Positions 3,871 to 30,446 of a DNA stretch of 32,824 nucleotides are shown one piece after another; positions within the stretch are counted from its first letter, which is position 1; every line of letters begins with the position of its first letter. Below the pieces are notes generated by a model. That model did not search any database. It was not told the DNA's origin and saw nothing but the letters and a program-made list of their open reading frames with translations. Source of the DNA: a virus (lineage: Duplodnaviria > Caudoviricetes). The position numbers were made by a program, and so were the translations under genes. The stretch covers positions 1 through 32,824 of IMG/VR virus record IMGVR_UViG_3300023276_000579, one strand, 5' to 3'.

Positions 3871-6800
3871 TTATCGTTTGTATGTTCTGTTTACATCCAA
3901 TCCAAGGTTTGTCTTCATAATCCCAGTTATCACGTTCTCTTCTCCGCCAAACAGCTCAAACACATTCTTTGCCTGAATCGGAAGAAGCTGTATCGCCTGC
4001 CATGTAGCATATGACGGCAGTTCCGCATGAGACAAAGGGCCACGCTTACCGCTTTTCCACGTTGCAAGCCCTTCTTGACCGATCTTTGAGAATGTGGTCG
4101 GACGCTTATGGTCATACCGAGTGCCGCTTATCAGGTCAGCAATCGGCTTTGCGACCGTTGAACTCTTATGATATGCCATCCGTACCGGATCAAAAGCAAT
4201 CTTAGCAGGGTCAAGGAAGTGACCGAGAGTATTCAGATAGTGGTCTGTTTCCCGATCACCGCCCATTAAGTGTATAAACGGGCTTATATCGGCCTTAAGG
4301 ATGTTAAATTTCCCACGACCTTTGGCTTTTCTCATTCTTTCGGCTATGGAGTCATCATCAATACCGGCCATAAGCAGGTTTATCGCGGTGGTGATAGCAA
4401 GACTTCGACCAATGATCCGCAACCAGAACGCCTGATAAACCTTCCTTTCAAGATCAGTGCCGGCACGATTTGTACCAACGCCATCGATCTTGCCCGTGGG
4501 TTTAAGCCCAGGAACAGCTTTCACAGCAGATATGATATTAGAATATGTCCAGTCAGGACCGAGCAATAACAGCCTCATTACGTCCTGAGCACCCTTCGAT
4601 ACCCCCAACCGACCCATATGCATACCACCGAAGTCAGCATTAGCTAATCCGGCAACAACGCGGTATATCTCTTCTTCCTTGGCCGAATAGAAGTCGTCAA
4701 ACTCAACATCTCCTTTTTGGCCAAATACTTCCCAATTAGCCAGAACATGTTTTGCGATGAATTTCTTGTCTTTAGTTTTCAAATATTCTCTCTCGCTTGC
4801 CTTCTTCTCAATAGTAATCTGCACTCGGTTATTTGTCTGAAGTGCGACAAGCTCATTGAACGCAGTGGCAGTCTTCAGTGAGGATCCAAATATCCCGAAT
4901 AGCTCACCCTGAAGTCTTGATGTCATTGCTTCGAACTTCTTAGCACCCTTACCGACTATCTTGGTAGTCTCACCACGTTTGTGTCCGGCAATGAACTTCT
5001 CGATGCGGGTCTTATTCTGCAGGTTTTCTTTGCCGATATCCTGAACCTGGAACAAGGTCATGCCATAATAGTTCAATGCCATCATCTCAGGCGAGAACTC
5101 CATCATCATGTCCATTCCAGCCTGACGCCGGCTACCATAGTCAAACCGGCTCTTCATCTTGTTCATGACCCCAACCTGATCCTTATAGTCAGCATTCAGT
5201 TCCCCGGCCATGATAGCAGACCAAAGAAGACCACGACGATGAAACATTCCGAAATTAATGCGAATCGCTTTCAGTTTAGCGTTAAGGCTCATAAGCCCCA
5301 TAAGGAATTTGTTATTCCGAAGAGGAGACGTCGCCGTGATCTTGTTGAAGTAGTCTGCAATCTCGTTGGGAGCATATACGTCACGATACTCACCTTCGAT
5401 TGTTGAGCCTTGATGTTTCTTTGATATTTCTTTGGCAGAATCGAAATCCTTTGCCCGGTCAACTATCTTGCCGTCTTTGACGATCTTCAGAGCATAGAGC
5501 TTGCTTCCTGCCGGTTTCAATACTGAATACCCAGACTGAGGTTTCAGAGTGAAGAACTTATCGAACAGATTAGCATGAATCATCTCCTGATTACTCAATG
5601 CTTCGATGGACTGGTTCTGAGCCTCAAGAGCATTGACAAGAAAGTTGTCGAATTTGAGAACCTTTCCTTCTGCAAGATGCGGAACAAGGTTGTCGTATCT
5701 CTTTTCAAGCATCCGGCCTGTAATCTGGCTCATAAGATGCTCCGGAGTCTCTTCGGTCTGTTTCTGAACGAATACGGCGGCATTATAGAGATATTGCTTC
5801 TCACCGGCAAACTTGCTCCGGGAGACGACATCATCGTAGAATGCATCCGACATTTTCTTATAGTCGGTCTTCAGCCACGAATTGAGCTTCTGGCCATACT
5901 CGCCCTCACTGTTTACGATCTCCGCAACCTTGTCCATCGATGCGAGGTAGTTATGGTATTGAGCGAGAGCATAATTCTCGTCATTAGTCAGCTTATCCAT
6001 TGCCGTCAGACGGTCTATGTTCGCTTGTATGGCAGTTCTCTGTGCTTCGATAGTCTCGGCTGGTTTCTCGGAGTTCATAGCGTCAGCGGCAAACCGCATC
6101 GCCCGAGAGTATTCGCCGGCAACACCGCGGGGCTTAGAATCCTGCTTGCCAGAAAGTACGTTCCGTATGATGTCACGCATCTTGTATTCTGGTTTCATGC
6201 CGAATATGTCAAGATAGCTTTTCTCAAGCTTCATTGATTCGATCAGAGCCTTGAGCTTACGCATTCCAGAGATACCGAATAATTGGTCGGCAAAGTCAAT
6301 GTGCGTCAGAGCAGCGGCAACAATCTTCGCTGCTTCATCCCCTGAGACTGACTTCATTGACATATTCAGGTCGATACGCTTCTGTAATCTGCCTATTGCC
6401 TCGTCAACAATTTCCAGATCAGCATCTTGCTCTATACCCTTGACGAGCAGGTCTATATCGCCTTCGTCGCCAGCCTTGTCGCCGTATTGGAGTAGGTTTT
6501 GCAATTCAAATAGAGCATGTAGCGTCTTCTGCTTTGCCGCTTTATTGATGCCCGGCCTAGCTGGATCGCCAGTCCCCATTGCTTCTTTCATAAATCTATA
6601 ATTTGCCATCGTTCTTCTCTTGCCAGAAGAGAGAATATCCAGCAGTTTCTTCACTTCAGGAGAAGACACGCCAAGAGTATTCTCGAAAGCAACCGCTTCG
6701 GCACCTTCTTTACCATGCGTTCTGCCAAGGAAGTCGTTAAGTGTATTGTCAAGTAATTCAGCGATAGTCATCTCGGTATACTGTCGCGATGCCGCCGCAG

Positions 6801-9800
6801 TCTTCATTAATGCGTTCTTGGCGTCAACAGGTGCTAGGTTGTTCATAGCCCGAGATACGGTCATTGCTTGGCTTGCTACGCCTTGGTATGCGACCTTGTA
6901 CCCAATTCTATGCTGTATGTCAGCTTTCGGCAGGTCAGCAGTCAATAATTCACCAAGGTCTTTGGCAAACTTACGAGTTGCCGCTTGTGCAGTAAGAGAA
7001 GTATTAATGATAGTCCGGATATCACTCCGGCTACCAACGTCCGTCTGGACGGTTGCATGAGCCTCTGGGTCTATATCTGGAGAACCATGCACCCGAGAAC
7101 TAACCTCTGTAGCCGCCGCTTCCTCTATCAGCAGGTCTTCAATGCTTTCAAAGGTAATCTCACCGGGTAACGCTTGGAAAGAGACGAATGATTTGTCGTC
7201 AACAAGCCCCATCTCGATAAAGAAGTCACATACCGCATCGGCCATAATTGTCGAATAATCTGCAAACTGAGCAGATGTACCTTCGACTGGCAGAAACCTC
7301 TTAATTCGCTTTGCTCGGTCCTTCTTTGACTCTGCCTTCTTATTGAGTTCATTGCCGGCGAACGCAAACAGAGAGTGCATTGCCGCTGCCTCTATCTCTT
7401 GCATTGCGTTACGGCTGTTCTTCTTGAATAGTCCATTCTTGATAGCAGTGTAAACTCGGGTGATGTCGGCATCGATCTGACCACCACGGTTCGCTTCTGC
7501 CTGTATTGCCCAGTTAGGGCCAAGCATCTCTGTCATCTGGCGTATGATACGTCTATCCTTGCCAGGGTCAAGCATTTCTGACTTCCCGCTTACTGCAAGG
7601 TCTTTGTAGTCTATGTCAAGATCAGACGCGTCAAGGTCAAACTCCATGCTACCAACTCTAAGTATGTCCACATAGCCTTCAGGCCCGATCGTTGAACGAT
7701 TATCATATCCCAGCCCCATATCTATATAAGCCTGCTCTGTTAATGGAAGTATGACTCCCTCGTAGACCTGTTGGCTGTATTGTCCTTCAACCCCAAATGC
7801 AGTAGGACGGAGATTCTCTTCTGGCGATATACCCTTCAGGTCTTTAGCTGTTGCCGTACTGACACGCTTGCCAGTAAGCCTGATAGAGTCCGTAGAGCTT
7901 GCCATTGAGGTAGCATATGCACGAGAAGCCATGTCCTCGTCTACCGCAGTCACTACCTCTCTTTGGTCGATACCTCTAGTCGAGGTGGTCTCTTTGCTTT
8001 CCAATGACTTGTACTTATGAGCAAGAATCTGCTGTGGACTCCAATTATGAACTCTGCCCAATGCTTCTGAGATTGATTCAATCGCATTCTCTACTTCTGC
8101 TTGTGTCGGATTAGAACCAGACAGAAGGCTTAGTTCTTCCGAAAGCATGCCGAGGTCATTAAGATTCTGCTTATCACCTCTTTGCTGTGCTATATGCTTT
8201 GCTCGCTCTATATCAGAGACAAGCGGACCCATCCTTGCTAACATTGTTTCTACACTTCTGGTAGGCGTATTCACATCGCCTTGCATGAAAGCATAAGGCT
8301 TGCTCATTCCACCAGTAGTCTTACGCTTTGCACTCTCGATAGCCACTAATGCTTCGACGTTTGCACGTTCAAGTGCTTCAGCGGCCTCTCCGTTGAATTC
8401 TTGGTCGGCATCGATCTTTCGCTTAAGTTCGACAGTAAACTCGCTTGCTTTAGCTTCCTCAAATAATGAGAACTCTTCCGAATCTTCTTTTGGAGCTTTC
8501 TTTGTCCTGGCGTATGATTCCTGCATATACGCATTGAATTGCTTAACAAAGTCTTCGAAAGGTATCTGGCCAAGTTTGCCATCCCTGTAATACTTCAGGA
8601 GTCGCTTGAGTTTTGCTACGCCCGCCTTACGGGTCTGTCGAGCCTTGACGTTCTTATCGGCCATATACGTCTTCAGTAAGCCGGGCATCAGTTCTGCTGT
8701 TTGTTTAAGCTCAGTAAGTGCTTTCTTATGTTCATTGACAAACCGTTTCTCTGTTGCAGTTTTAGCAGTGTATACCGATTCATTATTGATCGCACGCTGA
8801 AGTCTGCCATCCATGAACTTCTGTAGTTCAGTACGTTCAAGGCTGTTAAGGTTGTTGTCTTTTGCGTACCTGTCAACGTATCCGTCCTTACGCTGTTCAA
8901 GCTTGTCGTAGTTTGCTTTGAAAGCTAATCTGGCAGTCTCGGATGCGATGGCTTGTTTCTTGCCGAGTTTTAGTTCAGGTGCTTGCTCGCTCTTCTTCCC
9001 GCCGATCTTTGGTCCCGCCTTGCTATCCGTAAATCTACTCAATGCCTGAGTTAGATATTTAAATGTCCTTGGAGCCTTCTCTCGTAACTTAGCAAGCCCA
9101 GTCCCGATCCCGCCAGACGGAAGGACTATGGGCATATTAGACGGAATCTTTTTAAGGGCTGCGTTTATCGCTTGGACATTAGAATCGTACTCGGCATCAC
9201 TAAAAAATGAACCCTGACTCATTGAAGGTTTCTTTTTAGTAGGAATGCCGTACGCGTTCGGTTCATCTCGTATAACAGCCTGCCCGCCTTTTCCGCGACC
9301 TTGAAGATTATCACCAAACAGGAATGCCGCGTTTGGCTTAGAGCGAAGCAATTTGGACGTATACTTTTGTTGCGTGACAACACCTCGCCCAGCTGTTATA
9401 GAGCCGTAGGGAGCAGGTGGAATTGCTTTCTGTTGAGAAACAGCAGTCATAGGAACCAACTCTTGGATATCCTGTTCGGTCAAGAACGGTTTTAGATATC
9501 GCATATCATTGGAAAGCTCTCTCGCTTCGTGCGACTCGATAATACTTGCTGCGATTGCGTAGTTGACATACTTAACCATTCGATCTGTAGCACCAACATC
9601 CCAATAGTTATCTTTCTGTCCGAAATCCACATACCGGTCTTTCCATCGAGACAGCAAATCTCTAGCCCATCCGCTACGAGGGTTATCGTCACCCTCCATA
9701 GCCCACCTTGCGAGAGTGTCACCAATATGCTTTCTTGCCGCTTCTCTTTGGTGCAGAGTCGTAGATGCTTCATATTCAGCGTTAAGTTTATCGGCAGATT

Positions 9801-12800
9801 CAAGATAGTCATACCCACGCTCGATGTCATCTTCCATTTCTCTTACAAAGTCATATTGTTCTATTTTGGGCATGGGCTGGTTGAGTTCAGTGCCTTTGCC
9901 GTTAAAGCCCCATAATTTATCGGAGCGTATTACGCGATCCTTAGCCGCTTGTTTGTCAGTGGCGGAAAATGATACGAGATCGAATTCCCACCACTTTGCA
10001 TCCTCTGCGGTGGCAGTTCCTTTTTTTATCCGTCGATAAGCATCTATGCCTTTTCTCTTAAGCCTTAGATTATGTGTCTCAGTTAAAGCTTTCCATTTTC
10101 GAACAGCCTCAGCAAACTGAGAGAATATGCCAATGCTGATTCCAGAATCGTATTCTTTTTTGTATTTCTGATGGATAGCTTTCAAACCGCCTGTTGAATA
10201 TGAGTCCCAATCGTCGATCGAGTCTATTTCGCTCTCAAAAGAAGGTATCTCTGATTTTGGAACATTCAATGTGTCAACTAAATACGCTACCATATCCTTA
10301 TACATATTCGATATTTCTTCAAGAGTAATATTCCTACGCATATGCTCTGGAGATTTGAATGGTAGGTTGTACTTATCTGTAAAGTCTCGTCCGAACGAAG
10401 ATGGCCTCTCGTATTGCACTCGCTGTACAGAAAACTCCCCTGCTGGTATTTTTATTGCATGACTATATGATATTCTACGCTCTCCTGAAAATTCATCTGA
10501 GGACGCCTCTTGCCCGTCCAATACTTCTTTTCCTTCCGAAGCAATTTCCCATCCTTTTTCTGAAAGTTCATAGAAATAGTAATCCGAGCCAGTCCTTTCG
10601 CCGTATTCCTGTGCCTGATTTAGATCGTCAGTGAATGATATCCCTGTTCCTTTACCGATAAAATTACTTTCGAACATGGTGTCTGTTGCCATCTTCAGAA
10701 CTAATTCGCCGTTTGCGTTTATTTTTGGAGCAAAGCTAGAAGCTCGGAATACACTTTTGTCGCCAAATGTAATTGTTGGCATACTCTGATTCAGCTCAGT
10801 GCCTTTACTGACAGAGTTAGCCACCCTATTAACAGCTTTCTTGCCGATACCCATAATACGGCCACCAGCAGACCTTGCTTTAGCCCCCACATCGCCTTCT
10901 CTAGCCGCCTGTACGCCAGCCTGAGCAACATCGGCAGTCTTCCGGCCAATACGTCCAATACGAGGTCCAATGTCCGTAGGAGAAGCCACGCCAAGATGTG
11001 ACGTCCTTACTTTACTTCCAGTACGAACAGAGGATATAACCTGATTCTCATAATGTCGTTTCTTGCTTGCTTCAGAAGCACTCTTGCCGCGAATAGCAAC
11101 GTCAAGACGGGCATAGATATCGCCGACCCTGCCACCCTGTCTAGCTGCTCTTGCTTCGATAGCTTCAGACGGAGCTTCAAGTTTATTGATACGAGCCTGT
11201 TTTGCTTGCTGTGTTCTCCACTCAGCTTCTTCGGGGTACATAGACCCTTCTTCAGAAACATCAAGTGCCACCTTGTCAGCGTCACGCTCTTTCCACGCCT
11301 GTATTTCCTCAAGAGAAAGGGTCGCTGCCTTATCGTAGAAATTAAGCAAAGCACCGCCAACTGCTTCAGGAGAATTCTGTATAATCACATGTGATGATTC
11401 ATGTGGCATAGTAGAACCTACATAATGGTTTAGAAGCACAACGTCCTTGCCAAGACCCTTCTTCTCGATCTTCGCCCACAATTCAGGGCTAACCTCGACA
11501 GTATCGGCATCGGTGCCAGAGCGATACTTAGACATGACTTGCTGCCCGGCTTCGTTGAGTAAGGGTCCATCTGCCTGCATTACAACTATCTTGCCGCCAA
11601 TCCCGTCACTCATTGTATAGGCCTTACCAGGAATCACTTCTTCGATTGACACATTCCTGCTGTTATCTATGAGCCACGCCTGCATAGGGTCTGCTAGCAA
11701 CGCACTGACCGAATTCGCTACTGCTCTTTCGTAAGCACTATCAAGGTTTGACTTTCTGGATCTTTTGCTAACATCTATCTCTACGTCCGACTGGCTATGA
11801 CCGTGGAAGACGTTATGGTCAAGCACGTTGACATCGCTTCCCCACCTTTTCTTCAACGCAGCCACCAGTGGGTCAGATGCGTTTGCGAATACATATCTGA
11901 TCTCTGGGTTAGCTTCAAGCATCTTCTCTATATTCTCGACTGCTTGACCTCTTTTGCTACCCGGCTTTTTAGCGAGTTGGACGAGCCTGAGCGTGTTCTT
12001 TTTCATTCCAGGTTCGGTCTTTTCGGCGTTGCTCCGTTCGATGACCGCATGTATAGCGAATGTGTCAGTTTCGTACTTGATCTGACCTTCTTCTGTAGCC
12101 TTGTATTTCTTGTCGATTTTCTTTTTCGGAGGATTCATCATCTCTAAATAAACTCGGCGAGCAATAAAGTCAAGTCCCTCTTCAGTTAGTCCTAAATCTG
12201 TTTCAAAATAATCTTCCATCTCTAAATTATCAATAATTGATTGCGTCTCAGCCTCAGTTTTCCCATTGAATGGTATAGCCTGACGTGTTTTTAAGTTATT
12301 CATCACTTTCTTTGTGGAGTGCCTTACATTATTCTTAATGGCCTCTATAGTCCTTGCAGTTTTCCATCGCCCTCTAAGGCTGCCACCGGCCCCTAATACC
12401 CCAAACGACCCTTCGAGTACTGCACCCGCAATAAAGGCGTCATTCATTTCCTGTAGAATCTTAGCTACATCGTAAGAACCATCGGCATTGAGAGGAAGAA
12501 TGCTGTTAAGATCTTCATGCTTGACTGCCAATTCCATCAGACCCAACTGCATTCCTTGCTGTATCCACTCTTCGACTCCCCCAGTAAGTGTTTCAGCAGT
12601 TGTATTTTTTGCAATATTCTTAATCAGTCCAAGTCGTGACGTATCCATGAATGCTTTAGCCATTGCATCCGACAGTTCTACCTGCGTCATCTTTCCGGCG
12701 GCAGTATGGCCTAATGCTTTTTTTATGCCTATTTTCCTTCCGCTACCTCCGAGATTCCTGAGCCTAGCTCGTCTTCCTCCTGCCTCGAATAGTTTTCCAA

Positions 12801-13752
12801 CCACAGGCGTTTTACTTAATACCTTCCCTGTAGCCATCTCGACTGCAGCAACCGACATCCCTATGGCTACCGCTGTTGTTTTAGCTGTTTCCTTGCTTAC
12901 TCCAGCACGACGCAAATCATAATAGGCCTCTGTCCCAGTGTACGAGGCGATAAACCCACCACTTAAAATAGGGCCTATTCCGGGAACAATAGCCGATGCA
13001 AGGGCAGATCCCATCGGTACGGCATTCTGGGCAGTAAGGTGTAAATACTTATCCATCGTACCTGTTGGCTCGTGATACGCGGCCTGTCTGGACGCTTCCT
13101 GCATAGCCATGCCATACTCTTCGCTTCTGCCTCTCGCTGCCTCTAGCGGTGCTCTTGCCATCTCAAAGCCTTGGTTGACCGAGTACATCACATCTTCAAA
13201 GGTATTGCCGGTGAGTTTGCCCTGCAGGTCATCGTACTGAGCGTCAAGAAGCTTACCGTATTCAGCTCTTGCATCGGATGCCGTAGCTCGCATCTTCTTC
13301 TCGCCTTGCCTGGCTGAGTAAACAGCAAACTCTTCTTTAGCTGCCAGTGTGTAGTCTTTTGACTCCCACATCCTCTTAAGGTTTTTATCGTAATCTTTGA
13401 GGTTGTTTGGCATGTACGACCGTGGAACTTTATTGATTGTTCCATGCTTTACGTCTTTGTACTGTCCAGCCCATTCTACGTTTTGGTCAACGGCACCTTG
13501 GTAAAACTTCCCTTGTTCGTATGGACGTTCATTTGCCTTTTTCCCCACAGAGATGTTATTTTCGCGTAACCGATTAATATTCAATTGGTGAGATAGTTCA
13601 GATTTCTCTTTTGCGGTTAGGCTAAATGTTGTTTTGGACTCAATAGGCGAACCGTCAGCTCTTGCTTTATTCAATTGAAGCTGAAGAGAAGCATTTCCGC
13701 TGGTTTTGATCTGCCGTCTACTTCTTGGTGACGGTATTGTAACTTGTGCCAT
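3871..13752 (-). CDS. Giant polyvalent internal-virion/DNA-ejection protein (3293 aa)
   Basis: Last gene of the virion operon, after three ejection-type genes. It has Gly/Ala-rich hydrophobic helices near the N-terminus, a HESSH zincin motif, ART-like and macrodomain-like segments, and a C-terminal DFGG...LG.S...QD..RLLLL.PDWT region typical of large podophage proteins. Confidence 0.85.
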   Translation of the reverse strand: MAQVTIPSPRSRRQIKTSGNASLQLQLNKARADGSPIESKTTFSLTAKEKSELSHQLNINRLRENNISVGKKANERPYEQGKFYQGAVDQNVEWAGQYKDVKHGTINKVPRSYMPNNLKDYDKNLKRMWESKDYTLAAKEEFAVYSARQGEKKMRATASDARAEYGKLLDAQYDDLQGKLTGNTFEDVMYSVNQGFEMARAPLEAARGRSEEYGMAMQEASRQAAYHEPTGTMDKYLHLTAQNAVPMGSALASAIVPGIGPILSGGFIASYTGTEAYYDLRRAGVSKETAKTTAVAIGMSVAAVEMATGKVLSKTPVVGKLFEAGGRRARLRNLGGSGRKIGIKKALGHTAAGKMTQVELSDAMAKAFMDTSRLGLIKNIAKNTTAETLTGGVEEWIQQGMQLGLMELAVKHEDLNSILPLNADGSYDVAKILQEMNDAFIAGAVLEGSFGVLGAGGSLRGRWKTARTIEAIKNNVRHSTKKVMNNLKTRQAIPFNGKTEAETQSIIDNLEMEDYFETDLGLTEEGLDFIARRVYLEMMNPPKKKIDKKYKATEEGQIKYETDTFAIHAVIERSNAEKTEPGMKKNTLRLVQLAKKPGSKRGQAVENIEKMLEANPEIRYVFANASDPLVAALKKRWGSDVNVLDHNVFHGHSQSDVEIDVSKRSRKSNLDSAYERAVANSVSALLADPMQAWLIDNSRNVSIEEVIPGKAYTMSDGIGGKIVVMQADGPLLNEAGQQVMSKYRSGTDADTVEVSPELWAKIEKKGLGKDVVLLNHYVGSTMPHESSHVIIQNSPEAVGGALLNFYDKAATLSLEEIQAWKERDADKVALDVSEEGSMYPEEAEWRTQQAKQARINKLEAPSEAIEARAARQGGRVGDIYARLDVAIRGKSASEASKKRHYENQVISSVRTGSKVRTSHLGVASPTDIGPRIGRIGRKTADVAQAGVQAAREGDVGAKARSAGGRIMGIGKKAVNRVANSVSKGTELNQSMPTITFGDKSVFRASSFAPKINANGELVLKMATDTMFESNFIGKGTGISFTDDLNQAQEYGERTGSDYYFYELSEKGWEIASEGKEVLDGQEASSDEFSGERRISYSHAIKIPAGEFSVQRVQYERPSSFGRDFTDKYNLPFKSPEHMRRNITLEEISNMYKDMVAYLVDTLNVPKSEIPSFESEIDSIDDWDSYSTGGLKAIHQKYKKEYDSGISIGIFSQFAEAVRKWKALTETHNLRLKRKGIDAYRRIKKGTATAEDAKWWEFDLVSFSATDKQAAKDRVIRSDKLWGFNGKGTELNQPMPKIEQYDFVREMEDDIERGYDYLESADKLNAEYEASTTLHQREAARKHIGDTLARWAMEGDDNPRSGWARDLLSRWKDRYVDFGQKDNYWDVGATDRMVKYVNYAIAASIIESHEARELSNDMRYLKPFLTEQDIQELVPMTAVSQQKAIPPAPYGSITAGRGVVTQQKYTSKLLRSKPNAAFLFGDNLQGRGKGGQAVIRDEPNAYGIPTKKKPSMSQGSFFSDAEYDSNVQAINAALKKIPSNMPIVLPSGGIGTGLAKLREKAPRTFKYLTQALSRFTDSKAGPKIGGKKSEQAPELKLGKKQAIASETARLAFKANYDKLEQRKDGYVDRYAKDNNLNSLERTELQKFMDGRLQRAINNESVYTAKTATEKRFVNEHKKALTELKQTAELMPGLLKTYMADKNVKARQTRKAGVAKLKRLLKYYRDGKLGQIPFEDFVKQFNAYMQESYARTKKAPKEDSEEFSLFEEAKASEFTVELKRKIDADQEFNGEAAEALERANVEALVAIESAKRKTTGGMSKPYAFMQGDVNTPTRSVETMLARMGPLVSDIERAKHIAQQRGDKQNLNDLGMLSEELSLLSGSNPTQAEVENAIESISEALGRVHNWSPQQILAHKYKSLESKETTSTRGIDQREVVTAVDEDMASRAYATSMASSTDSIRLTGKRVSTATAKDLKGISPEENLRPTAFGVEGQYSQQVYEGVILPLTEQAYIDMGLGYDNRSTIGPEGYVDILRVGSMEFDLDASDLDIDYKDLAVSGKSEMLDPGKDRRIIRQMTEMLGPNWAIQAEANRGGQIDADITRVYTAIKNGLFKKNSRNAMQEIEAAAMHSLFAFAGNELNKKAESKKDRAKRIKRFLPVEGTSAQFADYSTIMADAVCDFFIEMGLVDDKSFVSFQALPGEITFESIEDLLIEEAAATEVSSRVHGSPDIDPEAHATVQTDVGSRSDIRTIINTSLTAQAATRKFAKDLGELLTADLPKADIQHRIGYKVAYQGVASQAMTVSRAMNNLAPVDAKNALMKTAAASRQYTEMTIAELLDNTLNDFLGRTHGKEGAEAVAFENTLGVSSPEVKKLLDILSSGKRRTMANYRFMKEAMGTGDPARPGINKAAKQKTLHALFELQNLLQYGDKAGDEGDIDLLVKGIEQDADLEIVDEAIGRLQKRIDLNMSMKSVSGDEAAKIVAAALTHIDFADQLFGISGMRKLKALIESMKLEKSYLDIFGMKPEYKMRDIIRNVLSGKQDSKPRGVAGEYSRAMRFAADAMNSEKPAETIEAQRTAIQANIDRLTAMDKLTNDENYALAQYHNYLASMDKVAEIVNSEGEYGQKLNSWLKTDYKKMSDAFYDDVVSRSKFAGEKQYLYNAAVFVQKQTEETPEHLMSQITGRMLEKRYDNLVPHLAEGKVLKFDNFLVNALEAQNQSIEALSNQEMIHANLFDKFFTLKPQSGYSVLKPAGSKLYALKIVKDGKIVDRAKDFDSAKEISKKHQGSTIEGEYRDVYAPNEIADYFNKITATSPLRNNKFLMGLMSLNAKLKAIRINFGMFHRRGLLWSAIMAGELNADYKDQVGVMNKMKSRFDYGSRRQAGMDMMMEFSPEMMALNYYGMTLFQVQDIGKENLQNKTRIEKFIAGHKRGETTKIVGKGAKKFEAMTSRLQGELFGIFGSSLKTATAFNELVALQTNNRVQITIEKKASEREYLKTKDKKFIAKHVLANWEVFGQKGDVEFDDFYSAKEEEIYRVVAGLANADFGGMHMGRLGVSKGAQDVMRLLLLGPDWTYSNIISAVKAVPGLKPTGKIDGVGTNRAGTDLERKVYQAFWLRIIGRSLAITTAINLLMAGIDDDSIAERMRKAKGRGKFNILKADISPFIHLMGGDRETDHYLNTLGHFLDPAKIAFDPVRMAYHKSSTVAKPIADLISGTRYDHKRPTTFSKIGQEGLATWKSGKRGPLSHAELPSYATWQAIQLLPIQAKNVFELFGGEENVITGIMKTNLGLDVNRTYKR

Positions 13753-25451: not shown

Positions 25452-27650
25452 CTACTTACCTTTCTTATCTTTATTACTATTCGATTTACCCGACAAGTCC
25501 ATCTTGCTCAGGGCTATTTGTTCTGGGGTCTTTCCCTTTATCAACATCTGTGCATTCAGATCTTTCTGGAACGCCATATCTGCACGCTGCTGGATTACCA
25601 TCTGGTGCTGGCCAATATGCATATTCATACGGTTAAGCAGTTCAATCATTAAGGCATTGCCAGTACTCTTTGCTTTCCAAAAGTTACTCAACAAGTATTC
25701 ACTGTGCACCTGAATGTGAACTGAATGATCGTCAAAGTTATTAACCTGCGGTACAAATAAATATTGCTCAAGTATCTGAGCCGTTTGCTCAGGAGTAGCA
25801 TTTTCCGGAATGTTAACATCTTTAAGATTCTCTTCTGCAGCAAGGAATTCTTTTGCCGCAAAATTCTTCTGCTTTGAATGCTTCTGCATAAGAGCAGTAG
25901 CGTTACCCATATTCATTTGCTCAAGCGTCCATATTCGAAGTTCCGGGTCCTGCGGATCACCGAGAACACCAGACCCCCATGCTTGAAACGCCTGTATCTT
26001 TTCAGCTTCTTTGTCAAGCGGCATAGAAGAATGACGCCTGACTATTACATTTACTTTACCTTGCAATTGCTGACGATCGATCTTGTAGACTGTCCAGTCG
26101 TAATCGGTTCCGACGACATTTACAAGTCTATCGCTTTCATAGTTTTTAAGTGCCAACGTCAATGCCTGATACGCTACTCTCTGGTCTGCTTCTTCGAACC
26201 CTTCGACTATCGGCCCAAGTTGCCTTGTGTCTGCATTGGCAAGCCTTTCAAGCCCTTTACCGCTTTCGATGTTCCGTGGTGCTATTCCCTGTGATGCATG
26301 ATGGAATGCAAACAAAGAATCGATCGCAAGTTTCTTGTCATTTAAATAAGAAAAGACCTGGCTATTCATAGGAACGCCCGCTTCTCGCGTTGGCTTTCCA
26401 ACTGGGCCGTCATATTCGATTATATTACCAGCACCGTTAGATAACGTTCTATGCCTAAGCTTAGCCGACTTCGGTGCCATAATAATGGCATTACCCATAA
26501 TGTCGATGTTCTCGTCAATCTGACTTGCCAGCTCGTTCAGCTTTCTCTGTAACGGTCTTGCTTGGCTTATCCGGCTGATGGAACCGTTAGATACACCGAC
26601 AACGTTCATCGGTGCTGCAGGGATAAACGGAAGTTCTCCGTGAGGATACATTTCTGTTGGATATGGGGCATGCATAACAACCTGCGTCCCAAGCATAACA
26701 GCATAGATTCCGGTCGGCATTGACTTTGAAGGCTTTTCCCAGTATTCGTAATAATCAATGAACTCGTCAGATTCAAGTTGCATATGAGATGAAGCATCCA
26801 TCTTTGGCGTAAATGTTGTTTTGTTTCCGGCAAACCCACTGACCAGACTATTGAACCGTCGCGTCAATCCAACTTCAAACTCAGATTCCCCTGCCTCCCT
26901 TGCAGATGTAAACTGAGATTTTAGCTTACTGTGTACTTCTGTGCCAAATCTGTCAACTACCCAGTTGCCGGTAACACGCTTTGAATGGATAATCCATTTC
27001 AACTTATTAAGATTCGTTTCCCTGAAATCATAGATAAGTTGATTTGTTGGGATGCATTCAATTTGAACATCTCCCTGCATGATTGCTTCGCCAACCTCAA
27101 GGTTTGGGTTATGTGCAAGATTTTCTGAGCCATCTTCATTGAATGGATCCGGATTGATACCGACAACCGTTTCATTTGCGTCCCAGTAAACCTTACGCCA
27201 TCCGATAGTGGAAATATCCCACCACAGAACAGCCTCACCGCGTTTAAAGTCTCTTCCGAGCTTACGCTGAAGAACCTTGAGTATCTTATCGCCGGCAATA
27301 GCGGTCGCACGATCATCATCGTCAGTACCAGCCGGTACAACGTCAAAGAGTGCCGGACTCGCCGTAGCAGTAGCGACATCATTCTGTACCGCAGGCAGGA
27401 TGACATTAACAACTTCATCGGTTGTACGCCTCTTGGCTGCAGGCCGAATAACGTCACCAAGAATCTCGATGTTTTGATACCCAACAAGATAACATACATT
27501 GGCAGTAATCTCGTTGACAATCAATCTTCTATGTATATTGAAACTGTATTTCCGCGTACTCATCATCTTCCCGATATGAAGAGCCTGCGGATCGTCAGTC
27601 ATTATGAACTGAGTCTGCATTTTTATTTTGTCAGTCTTACGTTCTTCCAA
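25452..27650 (-). CDS. Portal protein (P22-like size class)
   Basis: 732 aa downstream of the terminase genes, with GWRKVYWD, YPHGELPF, RPLQ..LN...SQI.EN and ESG..L..L...D motifs. Confidence 0.9.
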   Translation of the reverse strand: MEERKTDKIKMQTQFIMTDDPQALHIGKMMSTRKYSFNIHRRLIVNEITANVCYLVGYQNIEILGDVIRPAAKRRTTDEVVNVILPAVQNDVATATASPALFDVVPAGTDDDDRATAIAGDKILKVLQRKLGRDFKRGEAVLWWDISTIGWRKVYWDANETVVGINPDPFNEDGSENLAHNPNLEVGEAIMQGDVQIECIPTNQLIYDFRETNLNKLKWIIHSKRVTGNWVVDRFGTEVHSKLKSQFTSAREAGESEFEVGLTRRFNSLVSGFAGNKTTFTPKMDASSHMQLESDEFIDYYEYWEKPSKSMPTGIYAVMLGTQVVMHAPYPTEMYPHGELPFIPAAPMNVVGVSNGSISRISQARPLQRKLNELASQIDENIDIMGNAIIMAPKSAKLRHRTLSNGAGNIIEYDGPVGKPTREAGVPMNSQVFSYLNDKKLAIDSLFAFHHASQGIAPRNIESGKGLERLANADTRQLGPIVEGFEEADQRVAYQALTLALKNYESDRLVNVVGTDYDWTVYKIDRQQLQGKVNVIVRRHSSMPLDKEAEKIQAFQAWGSGVLGDPQDPELRIWTLEQMNMGNATALMQKHSKQKNFAAKEFLAAEENLKDVNIPENATPEQTAQILEQYLFVPQVNNFDDHSVHIQVHSEYLLSNFWKAKSTGNALMIELLNRMNMHIGQHQMVIQQRADMAFQKDLNAQMLIKGKTPEQIALSKMDLSGKSNSNKDKKGK

Positions 27651-27855
27651 GATTCACTTCCTTTTCAATACCGTTATCGGTAGTTACAAGAAACGATGTA
27701 TCACAACCAATGCATTTTATTACCGCGTCCCTGGCAAGGACTTCCATGCCTTTGTGTTTCACATGAACAAACGTGCCGTCGTCTTCGAAGTCGCTAATCT
27801 TAGCAACCTTACGGTAGCATTTTGGACAGTTCAAATTTTTAGATGACTTGGCCAT
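27637..27855 (-). CDS. Small zinc-ribbon protein
   Basis: Likely start MAKSSKNLNCPKC at 27855 rather than 27912. CPKC...CIGC pair resembles Mu Com-type zinc ribbons. Confidence 0.65.
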   Translation of the reverse strand: MAKSSKNLNCPKCYRKVAKISDFEDDGTFVHVKHKGMEVLARDAVIKCIGCDTSFLVTTDNGIEKEVNLGRT

Positions 27856-28117
27856 GTTCTTCTTCCGCATCTTCTGTTTCTGTTTCGTCTTTAGAGGTAT
27901 CATATCCAGCAATAAACAATTCGATATCGCCCATCTCCTTGATAAGCTCAGGTTTCAGCAATTTCATCCGCAACCAACATGAATGGAAATAACTATCTCT
28001 TGTGCACAGTACGTCACTGATCTGGTCTGGAACTTTTGCTGGCTCTGGCATATCCAGTGCTTTCATGACTTCATCTACCGTTGACCCGAATAGTCTTTCC
28101 CTAATCTTTTCAATCAT
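27839..28117 (-). CDS. Hypothetical protein
   Basis: 92 aa with GAAAGGGA SD, ATGA overlap with the nuclease gene and an acidic tail. Confidence 0.65.
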   Translation of the reverse strand: MIEKIRERLFGSTVDEVMKALDMPEPAKVPDQISDVLCTRDSYFHSCWLRMKLLKPELIKEMGDIELFIAGYDTSKDETETEDAEEEHGQVI

Positions 28118-28824
28118 AATACAATCCCTTTCTGTGTTCTGCCTGACGACAATTGCTTCCTAAACTGTTTCCATGCTTTCTGTACGTCAACGTCCTGCGT
28201 CTGATGCGTTATTACCTGTTTTTTCCGAGGCTTTGCAAACGGATAAAGCTTTGCTCCATGATAGGCCATCATCAAGGCCATTACCGTATCGTCATTGAAT
28301 CCGTCTGCCGCACCTGCTTTTCCCTTTGACTGCATATAGACAAAGTTCATCATCTCCGAGATCGTTACCGGGTCATGCAGGACGATACCGCCTTCTGACA
28401 ATGCCAGTTGCATTTCATTTATCAATAACCACTTTGACGATTCTGTGGTTCTGAATCCATACTTGTCCGAGATATCCATATCCTGATCGAGTCTGGTTTC
28501 AGCTTGATAGTTTCTTGGGTACTTATAATAATCTAAAAGAGCATCCTGTACTGAGTTACCCGGGTAGTTGATTTCCATTACTATCAGGGCTTCGTTATAA
28601 AACCGTCCGAGTTGGTTGGCGAATTCGCTTACTTTATTTACAGGCCATTTCGCTCGGAATACGGCGACCTGCTCGAACGGTATTGTGTTACTTAGTATTT
28701 GGAAGCATGTGTAGTCGTCTGCAAGTCCAGTACTTGCGTCACCGCCAAGCGTGTATACCATTCCTGGCTCTGGAAGCCTCATAATTCGCAATGGACCCAT
28801 TTCTTGTTCGACAAATTGGTGCAT
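28114..28824 (-). CDS. terL: Terminase large subunit, nuclease (RNase H-like) half
   Basis: YTLGGDASTG..DDYT, IVMEIN..G, GFRTT..SK and FNDDTVMAL motifs supply the terminase nuclease acidic residues. No ATPase motifs. Confidence 0.9.
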   Translation of the reverse strand: MHQFVEQEMGPLRIMRLPEPGMVYTLGGDASTGLADDYTCFQILSNTIPFEQVAVFRAKWPVNKVSEFANQLGRFYNEALIVMEINYPGNSVQDALLDYYKYPRNYQAETRLDQDMDISDKYGFRTTESSKWLLINEMQLALSEGGIVLHDPVTISEMMNFVYMQSKGKAGAADGFNDDTVMALMMAYHGAKLYPFAKPRKKQVITHQTQDVDVQKAWKQFRKQLSSGRTQKGIVL

Positions 28825-29093
28825 TATTCTACTTCTACCCAGTCGTCAGCTAAAATGTCACTCTGTGATGCTAGCCAAGGAACCACATTGCCTTGATCTG
28901 TCTTCATTGCGATATAAGCACCGTATTCTACTGTGTCTCCGAATTCTGCTTTTGCGACATCTGTGACAGTTTTGTAGGAGTTGGCTGGAACATGATATAG
29001 AAACATCCCTTTGCCGTTCCATCCTGCCCTTGCGACTTTTCTGCCATCCATTAAGATCCCGAGTGCATCGCTGAAAAATAAACTTTCTTCCAT
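28824..29093 (-). CDS. tad2: DUF2829 / Tad2-like anti-defence (signal-sponge) protein
   Basis: 89 aa with the F.DAL..L..G.KVARAGWNGKGMFL...YIAMKT....VPWLASQSDILADDW signature of DUF2829, the family of Thoeris anti-defence 2. Confidence 0.8.
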   Translation of the reverse strand: MEESLFFSDALGILMDGRKVARAGWNGKGMFLYHVPANSYKTVTDVAKAEFGDTVEYGAYIAMKTDQGNVVPWLASQSDILADDWVEVE

Positions 29094-29116
29094 AATCCTA
29101 TGCCTTTCTTAATATA

Positions 29117-29983
29117 CTATCCTGCTAACGCCAATGTCCCATCGACATGTGGCATTGCTGAATTTTCAAGTGCTACTAATAGTTTCCTGTCGAATACCGG
29201 ACGGCCACCAAAGATGATATATTTGCCTTCAATACGAACCTGTCTTTCATCTTCCGGCATTGACTTACAAAGCTTGTCAATCTCGCTGATCGGAATGTAC
29301 GGATTCTCACGCATTCCAGCCATCGTGTAATAAACATCTTCTCGGTCAAGCGTGTCCTTCAGCCACTTGGTTCCTTCGACTGGTGTTGCTGTCATTAGCC
29401 AAGGTGCTGCCTTGTCAAGCGTCCTGATCTCAAGCTCACCAAACACACCCTCTTTCAAAGGTTCTTCGTCTACCCAGGCAAAGTCGATCTTAGCACTTTG
29501 AAACTTTTGCTTTCCGGAGTCTACTGACTTAAACCAGACTTCCCATTCTCTGCCGTCAGACTTCAATGACCAGTACCCAAGCTTACCGTGCCATTTCCCT
29601 TTTTCTTTGTACCGCTTTGGGATAAGCGATTCGAAATAAGGTTGCAATACAGATCCTATACACTTGCTGTCAAGCCCGACAATCCATGCTATGCCCTCTT
29701 TAGGGCTTTCATAGGTAGGATGCTCGCCTGTGACCATCATCGCTGTCACAAAGGCACCCATTTGACTTTTGCCGATACGGTTCGCTCCACAAGCGACACA
29801 GCCTTTGTATTTTGGCATATTCCAGATAATGTCATACTGCCAACTCGGTCCACCGCTACGGTTCCGGTACGGCATCATCTTGTAGTAGAGTTCTTCGCCT
29901 CTTGCCAAAACTTCCGTCACTAGCTGTCGATTCGTTTTTAGCCAGTTCAAAGCCTCTTTCCCCTTCGACGTATGACTCGACAT
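29117..29983 (-). CDS. terL: Terminase large subunit, ATPase half
   Basis: Walker A GANRIGKS, Walker B FAWVDEEP, motif III MTATP, then ENPYI and R.EG.Y, ending in a stop at 29117. The start is uncertain: the frame is open to 30088, and ATG 29983 has an upstream AGGA. Confidence 0.9.
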   Translation of the reverse strand: MSSHTSKGKEALNWLKTNRQLVTEVLARGEELYYKMMPYRNRSGGPSWQYDIIWNMPKYKGCVACGANRIGKSQMGAFVTAMMVTGEHPTYESPKEGIAWIVGLDSKCIGSVLQPYFESLIPKRYKEKGKWHGKLGYWSLKSDGREWEVWFKSVDSGKQKFQSAKIDFAWVDEEPLKEGVFGELEIRTLDKAAPWLMTATPVEGTKWLKDTLDREDVYYTMAGMRENPYIPISEIDKLCKSMPEDERQVRIEGKYIIFGGRPVFDRKLLVALENSAMPHVDGTLALAG

Positions 29984-30446
29984 AGCGGCGAGATTCCTGA
30001 GCCTCGTCAATTTGTCTAAATAGTTCTTCATCTGATGATAAGGAAACCTCAACTGTAATGTCTTTTTTTGCTGGAGCTTTGAGTCCATAGATATCTATTA
30101 CCTTTCCAAGAGCTTTGTCTCTCGCAACATTGTCCGGAACATACTGTATCTTCTGGTGACTTGCACCTTCTTCGTCGATATCTTCGAGTATTATTGGCTT
30201 TTCAGCATCAAGCCCTTTTACTAGAATATCCATAGTGCCGGCAACGCCTCCAAGAGTTCCATCGTCAAGAAGCTGTAAGGCCATAGCTCGATAGTCCTTG
30301 TCTCTCTTGTAGGTCTGCAAGGTATTCCTAGTCACGCCCATTTCTTTTGCACATTGCACAACAGTCTTACCTTCTACAAGGTGCTTCTGAACGAACTGAA
30401 CCTTATTCACCAGCTTTTGCTTTTCCTGTGTCTTCGATGCTGGCAT
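29856..30446 (-). CDS. terS: Terminase small subunit
   Basis: N-terminal HTH (KTVVQCAKEMGVTRNTLQTY) and a GLDAEK...PDNVARDKAL....IYGL segment. Immediately upstream of the TerL ATPase. Confidence 0.75.
   Translation of the reverse strand: MPASKTQEKQKLVNKVQFVQKHLVEGKTVVQCAKEMGVTRNTLQTYKRDKDYRAMALQLLDDGTLGGVAGTMDILVKGLDAEKPIILEDIDEEGASHQKIQYVPDNVARDKALGKVIDIYGLKAPAKKDITVEVSLSSDEELFRQIDEAQESRRYVESYVEGERGFELAKNESTASDGSFGKRRRTLLQDDAVPEP

Follow-up and report, generated by a model that had tools for sequence, protein, structure and literature searches.

The large terminase subunit, TerL, of an uncultured phage is encoded in two parts, an ATPase gene and a nuclease gene, with a putative anti-defence gene between them. 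The locus raises the question whether the two halves are made and used as separate chains, and whether the inserted gene has anything to do with the split. A first-pass annotation, made from the letters alone, had answered both in the affirmative. The window, i.e. the whole stretch of DNA that was analyzed, is a linear virus record of 32,824 bases and about 61% complete.

Layout of the Terminase Locus

The head module of the window is P22-like and lies on the minus strand, as do all features described below. The terminase pair sits between terS, the gene for the small terminase subunit (29856-30446, 196 aa; phrog_7344, E 3e-4), and a P22-like portal gene (25452-27650; PF16510, E 4e-8; phrog_156). 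The TerL ATPase gene (29117-30088; phrog_2, E 6e-13) encodes 323 aa from the ATG at 30088 or 288 aa from the ATG at 29983, and its reading frame ends in PVFD...DGTLALAG, with the TAG stop at 29117. It is followed by a 23-nt spacer (29094-29116) with the SD sequence AAGAAAGG, by an 89-aa ORF (28824-29093), and by a gene for a 236-aa RNase H-like nuclease (28114-28824; phrog_24361, E 6e-20; RB49/T4 gp17 nuclease profile, E 1e-18). The last base of the TAA of the 89-aa ORF is the first base of the nuclease ATG (TAATG). The anatomy from the ATPase stop to the nuclease start had been described in the first-pass annotation and is confirmed in the sequence; the SD sequence before the 89-aa ORF is also present, but a crude duplex test rated it as weak (-2.6 kcal/mol).

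A stop codon and a start codon also share one base at several other junctions of the same packaging operon. We found no terminator at the ATPase/nuclease junction, and promoter-like sites there numbered 8 against 6.4 expected. One of these sites (9 of 12; 29140-29111) has its -10 element within the spacer before tad2, in an overall count that is not above chance. Two small conserved ORFs occupy the interval between nuclease and portal (27637-28117), and the junction between the nuclease gene and the first of them takes cargo in relatives. An ORF of 3,293 aa (3871-13752), with a DUF7831 domain at residues 1459-1569, was seen after the head genes.

The catalytic motifs had been described as intact in both halves, and the alignments bear this out. 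The ATPase ORF contains GANRIGKS (29765-29788), which we take, from general knowledge of terminases, to be the Walker A motif, and which is an intein insertion site in some relatives. Walker B (FAWVDEE, 29462-29482) and the TAT motif are also present, and the D-E-E of Walker B is invariant in 39/39 aligned rows. The acidic residues of the nuclease (D29, D37, E84, D178, and D179) are all there and are invariant in 34/34 aligned rows.

The stop of the ATPase gene stands as annotated. Its start had been placed at 29983 and probably lies at 30088 instead, since in 75/77 distinct loci an ATG is found 78-106 codons before Walker A, with a frame that is open through the overlap with terS. In the window, this frame is open from 30088 and overlaps terS, which is read in another frame, by 233 nt (29856-30088); the median overlap in the 75/77 loci, fused forms included, is 170 nt. 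An SD-like word accompanies the upstream ATG in 66 of the 75 loci, and the methionine at 29983 is replaced by leucine in several relatives. Under random synonymous terS codons, the median chance of an open overlap frame is 0.037 per locus, for loci that are related to each other. In the one pair tested, the first 35 ATPase codons showed selection in the terS frame only and no purifying selection in the ATPase frame.

The Split Is Shared by a Clade and Both Halves Are Under Selection

The two-gene arrangement is not peculiar to the window. A survey of relatives in viral, metagenome, and genome collections identified 71 distinct junctions, of which 69 were split and 2 fused (the count leaves out loci that end before the junction and distant outgroup loci). 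A protein search gave a similar picture. It returned 71 ATPase homologues of 202-325 aa and 4 longer ones, with a common end point in all 75; the longer proteins are interrupted at Walker A by an insertion and do not match the nuclease. Outside the clade, 125/147 further representatives were at least 400 aa long, as expected for an ordinary single-chain TerL. The separation can be wide: a distance of 4,447 nt lies between the halves in the complete genome G007 (L207:1120-5568). This interval contains four ORFs (94, 538, 51, and 757 aa), and the three of them that were scanned had no Pfam match. We found no cultured close relatives, the best reaching 27% and 32% identity.

Some individual loci deserve mention. 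An intein-like insertion of about 350 aa lies inside the Walker A motif of the ATPase gene in L007 (L007:2603-4648) and also in L013, L016, L020, and L103; intein-type families match the L007 insertion weakly. A relative with 47% identity (L166, G001:C58) may be a prophage: its 120-kb contig, from a Planctomycetaceae MAG, encodes an integrase and DnaB and, at a greater distance, contains bacterial genes. The ATPase match in L008:3684-4537 shifts from one frame to another around residue 59-73, which points to a sequencing error or a broken copy. Four distant short ATPases that end near the same site (P0096, P0101, P0111, and P0126) were considered as further independent splits, and this was not confirmed; locus searches with P0126 and P0101 led to 7 loci, namely 6 single long ORFs and 1 split from within the clade.

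In the window itself, both junctions are bridged with 0 differing letters by contigs (not raw reads) of run X3 and of runs X1 and X2, either of which may be a source of this DNA, and the Tad2/nuclease junction is also bridged by one contig of run X4. The runs containing the sequence are seawater metagenomes, with no RNA run listed among them. A 48.9-kb record is identical to the window over all 7,705 compared bases and contains no other terL, and no second terL was found in the complete genome G003 or in the 92%-complete genome G002.

Strong purifying selection acts on both terminase halves: comparisons among the four closest phages gave a dN/dS of 0.04-0.15 for the ATPase gene and 0.03-0.07 for the nuclease gene (6/6 pairs in each case). 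The split in 69/71 junctions, the selection on both halves, and the lack of another terL in G003 and G002 support the functional two-chain TerL of the first-pass annotation, with two chains that are predicted to package and cleave DNA.

Position and History of the Break

The two fused TerL proteins (L150:2580-4313 and L162:2869-4602) allow the break to be placed. Both halves of the split form align to them, and the alignments extend as far as the break. A model of the fused L162 protein (mean pLDDT 79.9) has T4 gp17 as its best fold match. In this model, the break corresponds to an 8-residue loop between the strands 312-319 and 328-333. The strands that flank the loop correspond to the last residues of the ATPase chain and the first residues of the nuclease chain: in the window, the C-terminal DGTLALAG of the ATPase (29120-29143), with a conserved G, matches the strand before the break, and the N-terminal FVEQEMGPLRI of the nuclease (28783-28815) matches the strands after it.

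In the nuclease tree, whose rooting is weakened by long outgroup branches, L150 and L162 fall inside a clade with 100/100 support and are flanked there by split forms. A tree in which the split forms are monophyletic was rejected (p-AU 0.022, 2 state changes). Since the fused forms nest among split ones, re-fusion is likely, and one fission followed by one re-fusion in L150/L162 is the simplest history of the gene. The ATPase tree does not resolve the base of the clade, and two fissions at the same site agree with it no less well than a single fission and a re-fusion. A recombination breakpoint at the junction, hinted at by differing trees for the four closest phages, was dismissed, as the informative sites are mixed in both genes.

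The ATPase chain ends in alanine in 55/73 cases. We considered a degron as an explanation, and found no specific support for it, as the nuclease ends are non-polar in 60/60 cases. Among the homologues of this chain end (29117-29125 in the window), a final alanine is also seen in 28/43 junctions without an ATGA overlap, and could reflect strand packing or a protease signal.

A Probable Terminase of Two Chains

Together, the above observations make it likely that TerL of this clade is encoded by two separate, selected genes whose products probably assemble non-covalently, and that the Tad2 gene is a likely recent and exchangeable insert at a pre-existing boundary. A single ancient fission would have occurred in the loop of a beta-hairpin, and would have been reversed once, in L150/L162. 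The motor would be rebuilt by pairing of two strands, the last of the ATPase chain and the first of the nuclease chain; such rejoining is suggested by the secondary structure and its order in the model of the fused relative.

A different question is why the split has been kept. It may lower detection by immune sensors that recognize the ATPase and the nuclease within a single polypeptide, such as Avs3 and, by similarity, Avs1. The part of PMC13601566 available to us reports binding of SeAvs3 to both the ATPase and the folded nuclease, which speaks for this explanation. The same source describes activation of EcAvs2 and of all three Upx homologues by the ATPase domain alone, and activation of KpAvs2 by either domain in some cases, which speaks against it. 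As EcAvs2 and the Upx homologues need the ATPase alone and SeAvs3 also binds the nuclease, only Avs3-like sensors could be affected by a split. The persistence of the split in 69/71 junctions, even though re-fusion is possible, fits immune evasion, but it is also expected if the split is neutral. On balance, we regard evasion as an unlikely reason for the persistence of the split.

Cargo at the Junction

The 89-aa ORF, originally annotated as DUF2829, belongs to the Tad2 family of sponges. It matches the Tad2-like family PF11195 over its full length (E 1.4e-23; 83.6 bits versus a cut-off of 25), and its closest solved relative is ModTad2/MoTad2 (PDB 9EIB, full-length match, E 8e-26). As far as the accessible part of 10.1101/2025.08.24.671296 describes it, MoTad2 has one pocket for His-ADPR and another for cUMP/cCMP, and the window protein is therefore likely to target signals of type II Thoeris or Pycsar. 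Like MoTad2, it may be a tetramer that sequesters nucleotide immune signals. Specificity varies within the Tad2 family, and the ligand of the window protein is a prediction by homology.

Insertions of more than 80 nt were found in only 6 of the 69 split junctions. The other 63 have no insert, which implies that the split predates the insert; the distribution indicates that the Tad2 gene did not cause the split, which is clade-wide and older. Among close relatives, some have no gene at this place and others have a different one. Nothing but a 9-nt gap separates the halves in L088 (88% ATPase identity) and L106 (93%, partial). L002 (94%) has nearly the same 23-nt spacer and gene ends, including the TAATG, around a different PF11195 protein of 74 aa that is only 24% identical to the window Tad2. 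To judge from these relatives, the cargo of the ATPase/nuclease junction is dispensable. The junction of L016 harbors a Tad1 gene (PDB 8KBB, E 1e-26), whose stop overlaps the nuclease start. L165 has a reverse-strand HNH gene at this place, and L102 and L107 have ORFs of unknown function. In L108, two other ORFs follow the ATPase gene, and the contig ends before any nuclease.

Cargo is also found at other junctions of the operon. Tad1 homologues with 48-59% identity to the L016 protein follow the nuclease gene in 5 loci (L128, L139, L143, L148, and L156), where they lie past the nuclease stop and at or close to the next junction. Another Tad1 homologue lies upstream of terS in G007 (L207). The junction after the nuclease gene has extra DNA in 19/50 loci, many of them from one subclade. 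The presence of Tad1 after the nuclease and upstream of terS means that the ATPase/nuclease junction is not a unique cargo site. Sponges in 3 of the 6 inserts are striking, but the small sample may be part of the explanation, and an enrichment over neighbouring junctions is not evident from these counts.

These data bear on the proposal of the first-pass annotation that the sponge gene is bound to the split: a dependence of nuclease translation on the sponge gene would lock this gene in place, and its expression would be timed to packaging. The stop/start overlaps in the window, L002, and L016 agree with this proposal, as do the occupation of the ATPase/nuclease junction by three different sponge genes and the orientation of the insert on the strand of the packaging operon. 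Translational coupling at the TAATG is plausible, and this part of the proposal can be retained. It is not a special coupling, as similar overlaps are common in the packaging operon, and a crude measure of SD strength before the nuclease gene is similar with cargo (-3.7, -3.0) and without (-3.9, -6.2). The lock itself is not supported, in view of the empty junctions (the 88% and 93% relatives included), the exchange of cargo between phages that are 94% identical, and the Tad1 genes and extra DNA at the neighbouring sites. We therefore consider a sponge gene locked in by the split quite improbable.

For an exchangeable insert at an older boundary, which we prefer, small accessory genes, sponges among them, would enter the junctions of the packaging operon and ride its transcript. 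Tad2 would then be translated from this transcript and made together with the virion proteins, the start of the nuclease would be reached by re-initiation at the TAATG, and Tad2 would bind Thoeris- or Pycsar-type signals.

One Polypeptide by Recoding or Splicing Is Unlikely

A single TerL polypeptide could still arise from two reading frames by recoding (frameshift, read-through, or ribosomal bypass), or by intron or split-intein splicing. Tight overlaps are found at most junctions (-4 in 27 of the 64 distinct split junctions), bypassing has been proposed for the terminase of Streptomyces phage Hau3 (PMC10732093, part available to us), and split-intein fractured terminase genes exist (PMC2677866, likewise). 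The frame relation at the 64 junctions, however, is not constant (+2 in 42, +1 in 14, and 0 in 8), and all the nuclease ORFs begin with their own start codon. Varying frames and halves that are up to 4.4 kb apart make recoding and splicing unlikely. The insert in the window had no Rfam intron match and folded no better than shuffled sequences (z +1.2), and no intein family was found in the window proteins. The alignment of both halves to the fused relatives up to the break also leaves no room for intein halves. A single chain produced by any of these routes is thus very improbable, and two separately translated chains are the better account.

A decayed gene or an assembly artefact, which might be suspected in an uncultured, 61%-complete record, can be set aside as hardly conceivable, given the unchanged bridging contigs of other runs, the strong purifying selection on both halves (dN/dS 0.03-0.15), and the conservation of the split throughout the clade. 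The first-pass annotation had already judged that the locus does not resemble decay or a sequencing frameshift.

Comparison with Known Systems

In herpesviruses, the terminase coding sequence of UL15 is interrupted by other genes and rejoined by splicing. Split-intein fractured genes (PMC2677866, as far as its accessible part describes them) likewise include an interrupted terminase that is rejoined by splicing, whereas the clade of the window shows no sign of splicing. The blocks proposed to be bypassed in Hau3 are short (PMC10732093, accessible part), unlike the window junction.

A terminase laid out over two genes is already known from annotation. In most Arthrobacter phages of cluster AY, the ATPase and the nuclease are annotated as two genes, according to the part of PMC11920828 that could be accessed. 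In one of them, the cultured phage BillyTP (PP978841.1), these are the consecutive genes 2 and 3. Their products had no match to the profiles of the window clade, which indicates an independent split in an unrelated family. In the AY phages, the nuclease ORF begins immediately ahead of its first catalytic strand and lacks the N-terminal strands found in the window clade. BillyTP also has no insert between the two genes, in contrast to a separation of up to 4.4 kb in the window clade.

The best fold and profile matches are to gp17 of T4 and RB49 (PDB 3CPE, 3EZK, and 3C6A; PF03237), which has the same ATPase and RNase H-like nuclease motifs. In the description given in the accessible part of PMC7617512, gp17 is one polypeptide joined by a linker, and not the product of two genes as in the window. 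An anti-signalling hotspot in Migulavirinae (10.64898/2026.06.04.730250, part available) is similar in that related phages carry different signal-sponge genes at one locus. It differs from the site in the window, which is a junction inside the packaging operon that is usually empty and has neighbouring junctions that also take cargo.

Searches of the open-access literature turned up neither an account of this clade nor one of sponge cargo between terminase halves. The accessible parts of PMC8601537, PMC11526630, and PMC11564622 contain nothing on split terminases. The present analysis adds the extent of the clade, halves that can lie 4.4 kb apart, a probable re-fusion, the site of the break, and three different sponges at one junction.

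Significance

A more far-reaching scenario can be put forward for the whole lineage. The motor would have two subunits, with a nuclease that is docked by beta-hairpin complementation, dosed and released apart from the ATPase ring, and able to escape sensors that require the two domains in a single polypeptide (Avs1/Avs3). The fission boundary would be a recurring landing site for interchangeable sponges (two Tad2 types and Tad1), whose expression would accompany that of the virion proteins triggering those defences. Taken as a whole, this scenario is rather unlikely.

Gene pairs of this type should not be annotated as pseudogenes. Sponge genes are swapped inside a core packaging operon. In models of packaging, the covalent link between ATPase and nuclease is part of how cutting is coordinated with translocation. 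The matched natural split and fused proteins of this clade allow testing whether the covalent link is needed, and also whether an Avs3-type sensor requires ATPase and nuclease to be joined in a single polypeptide.
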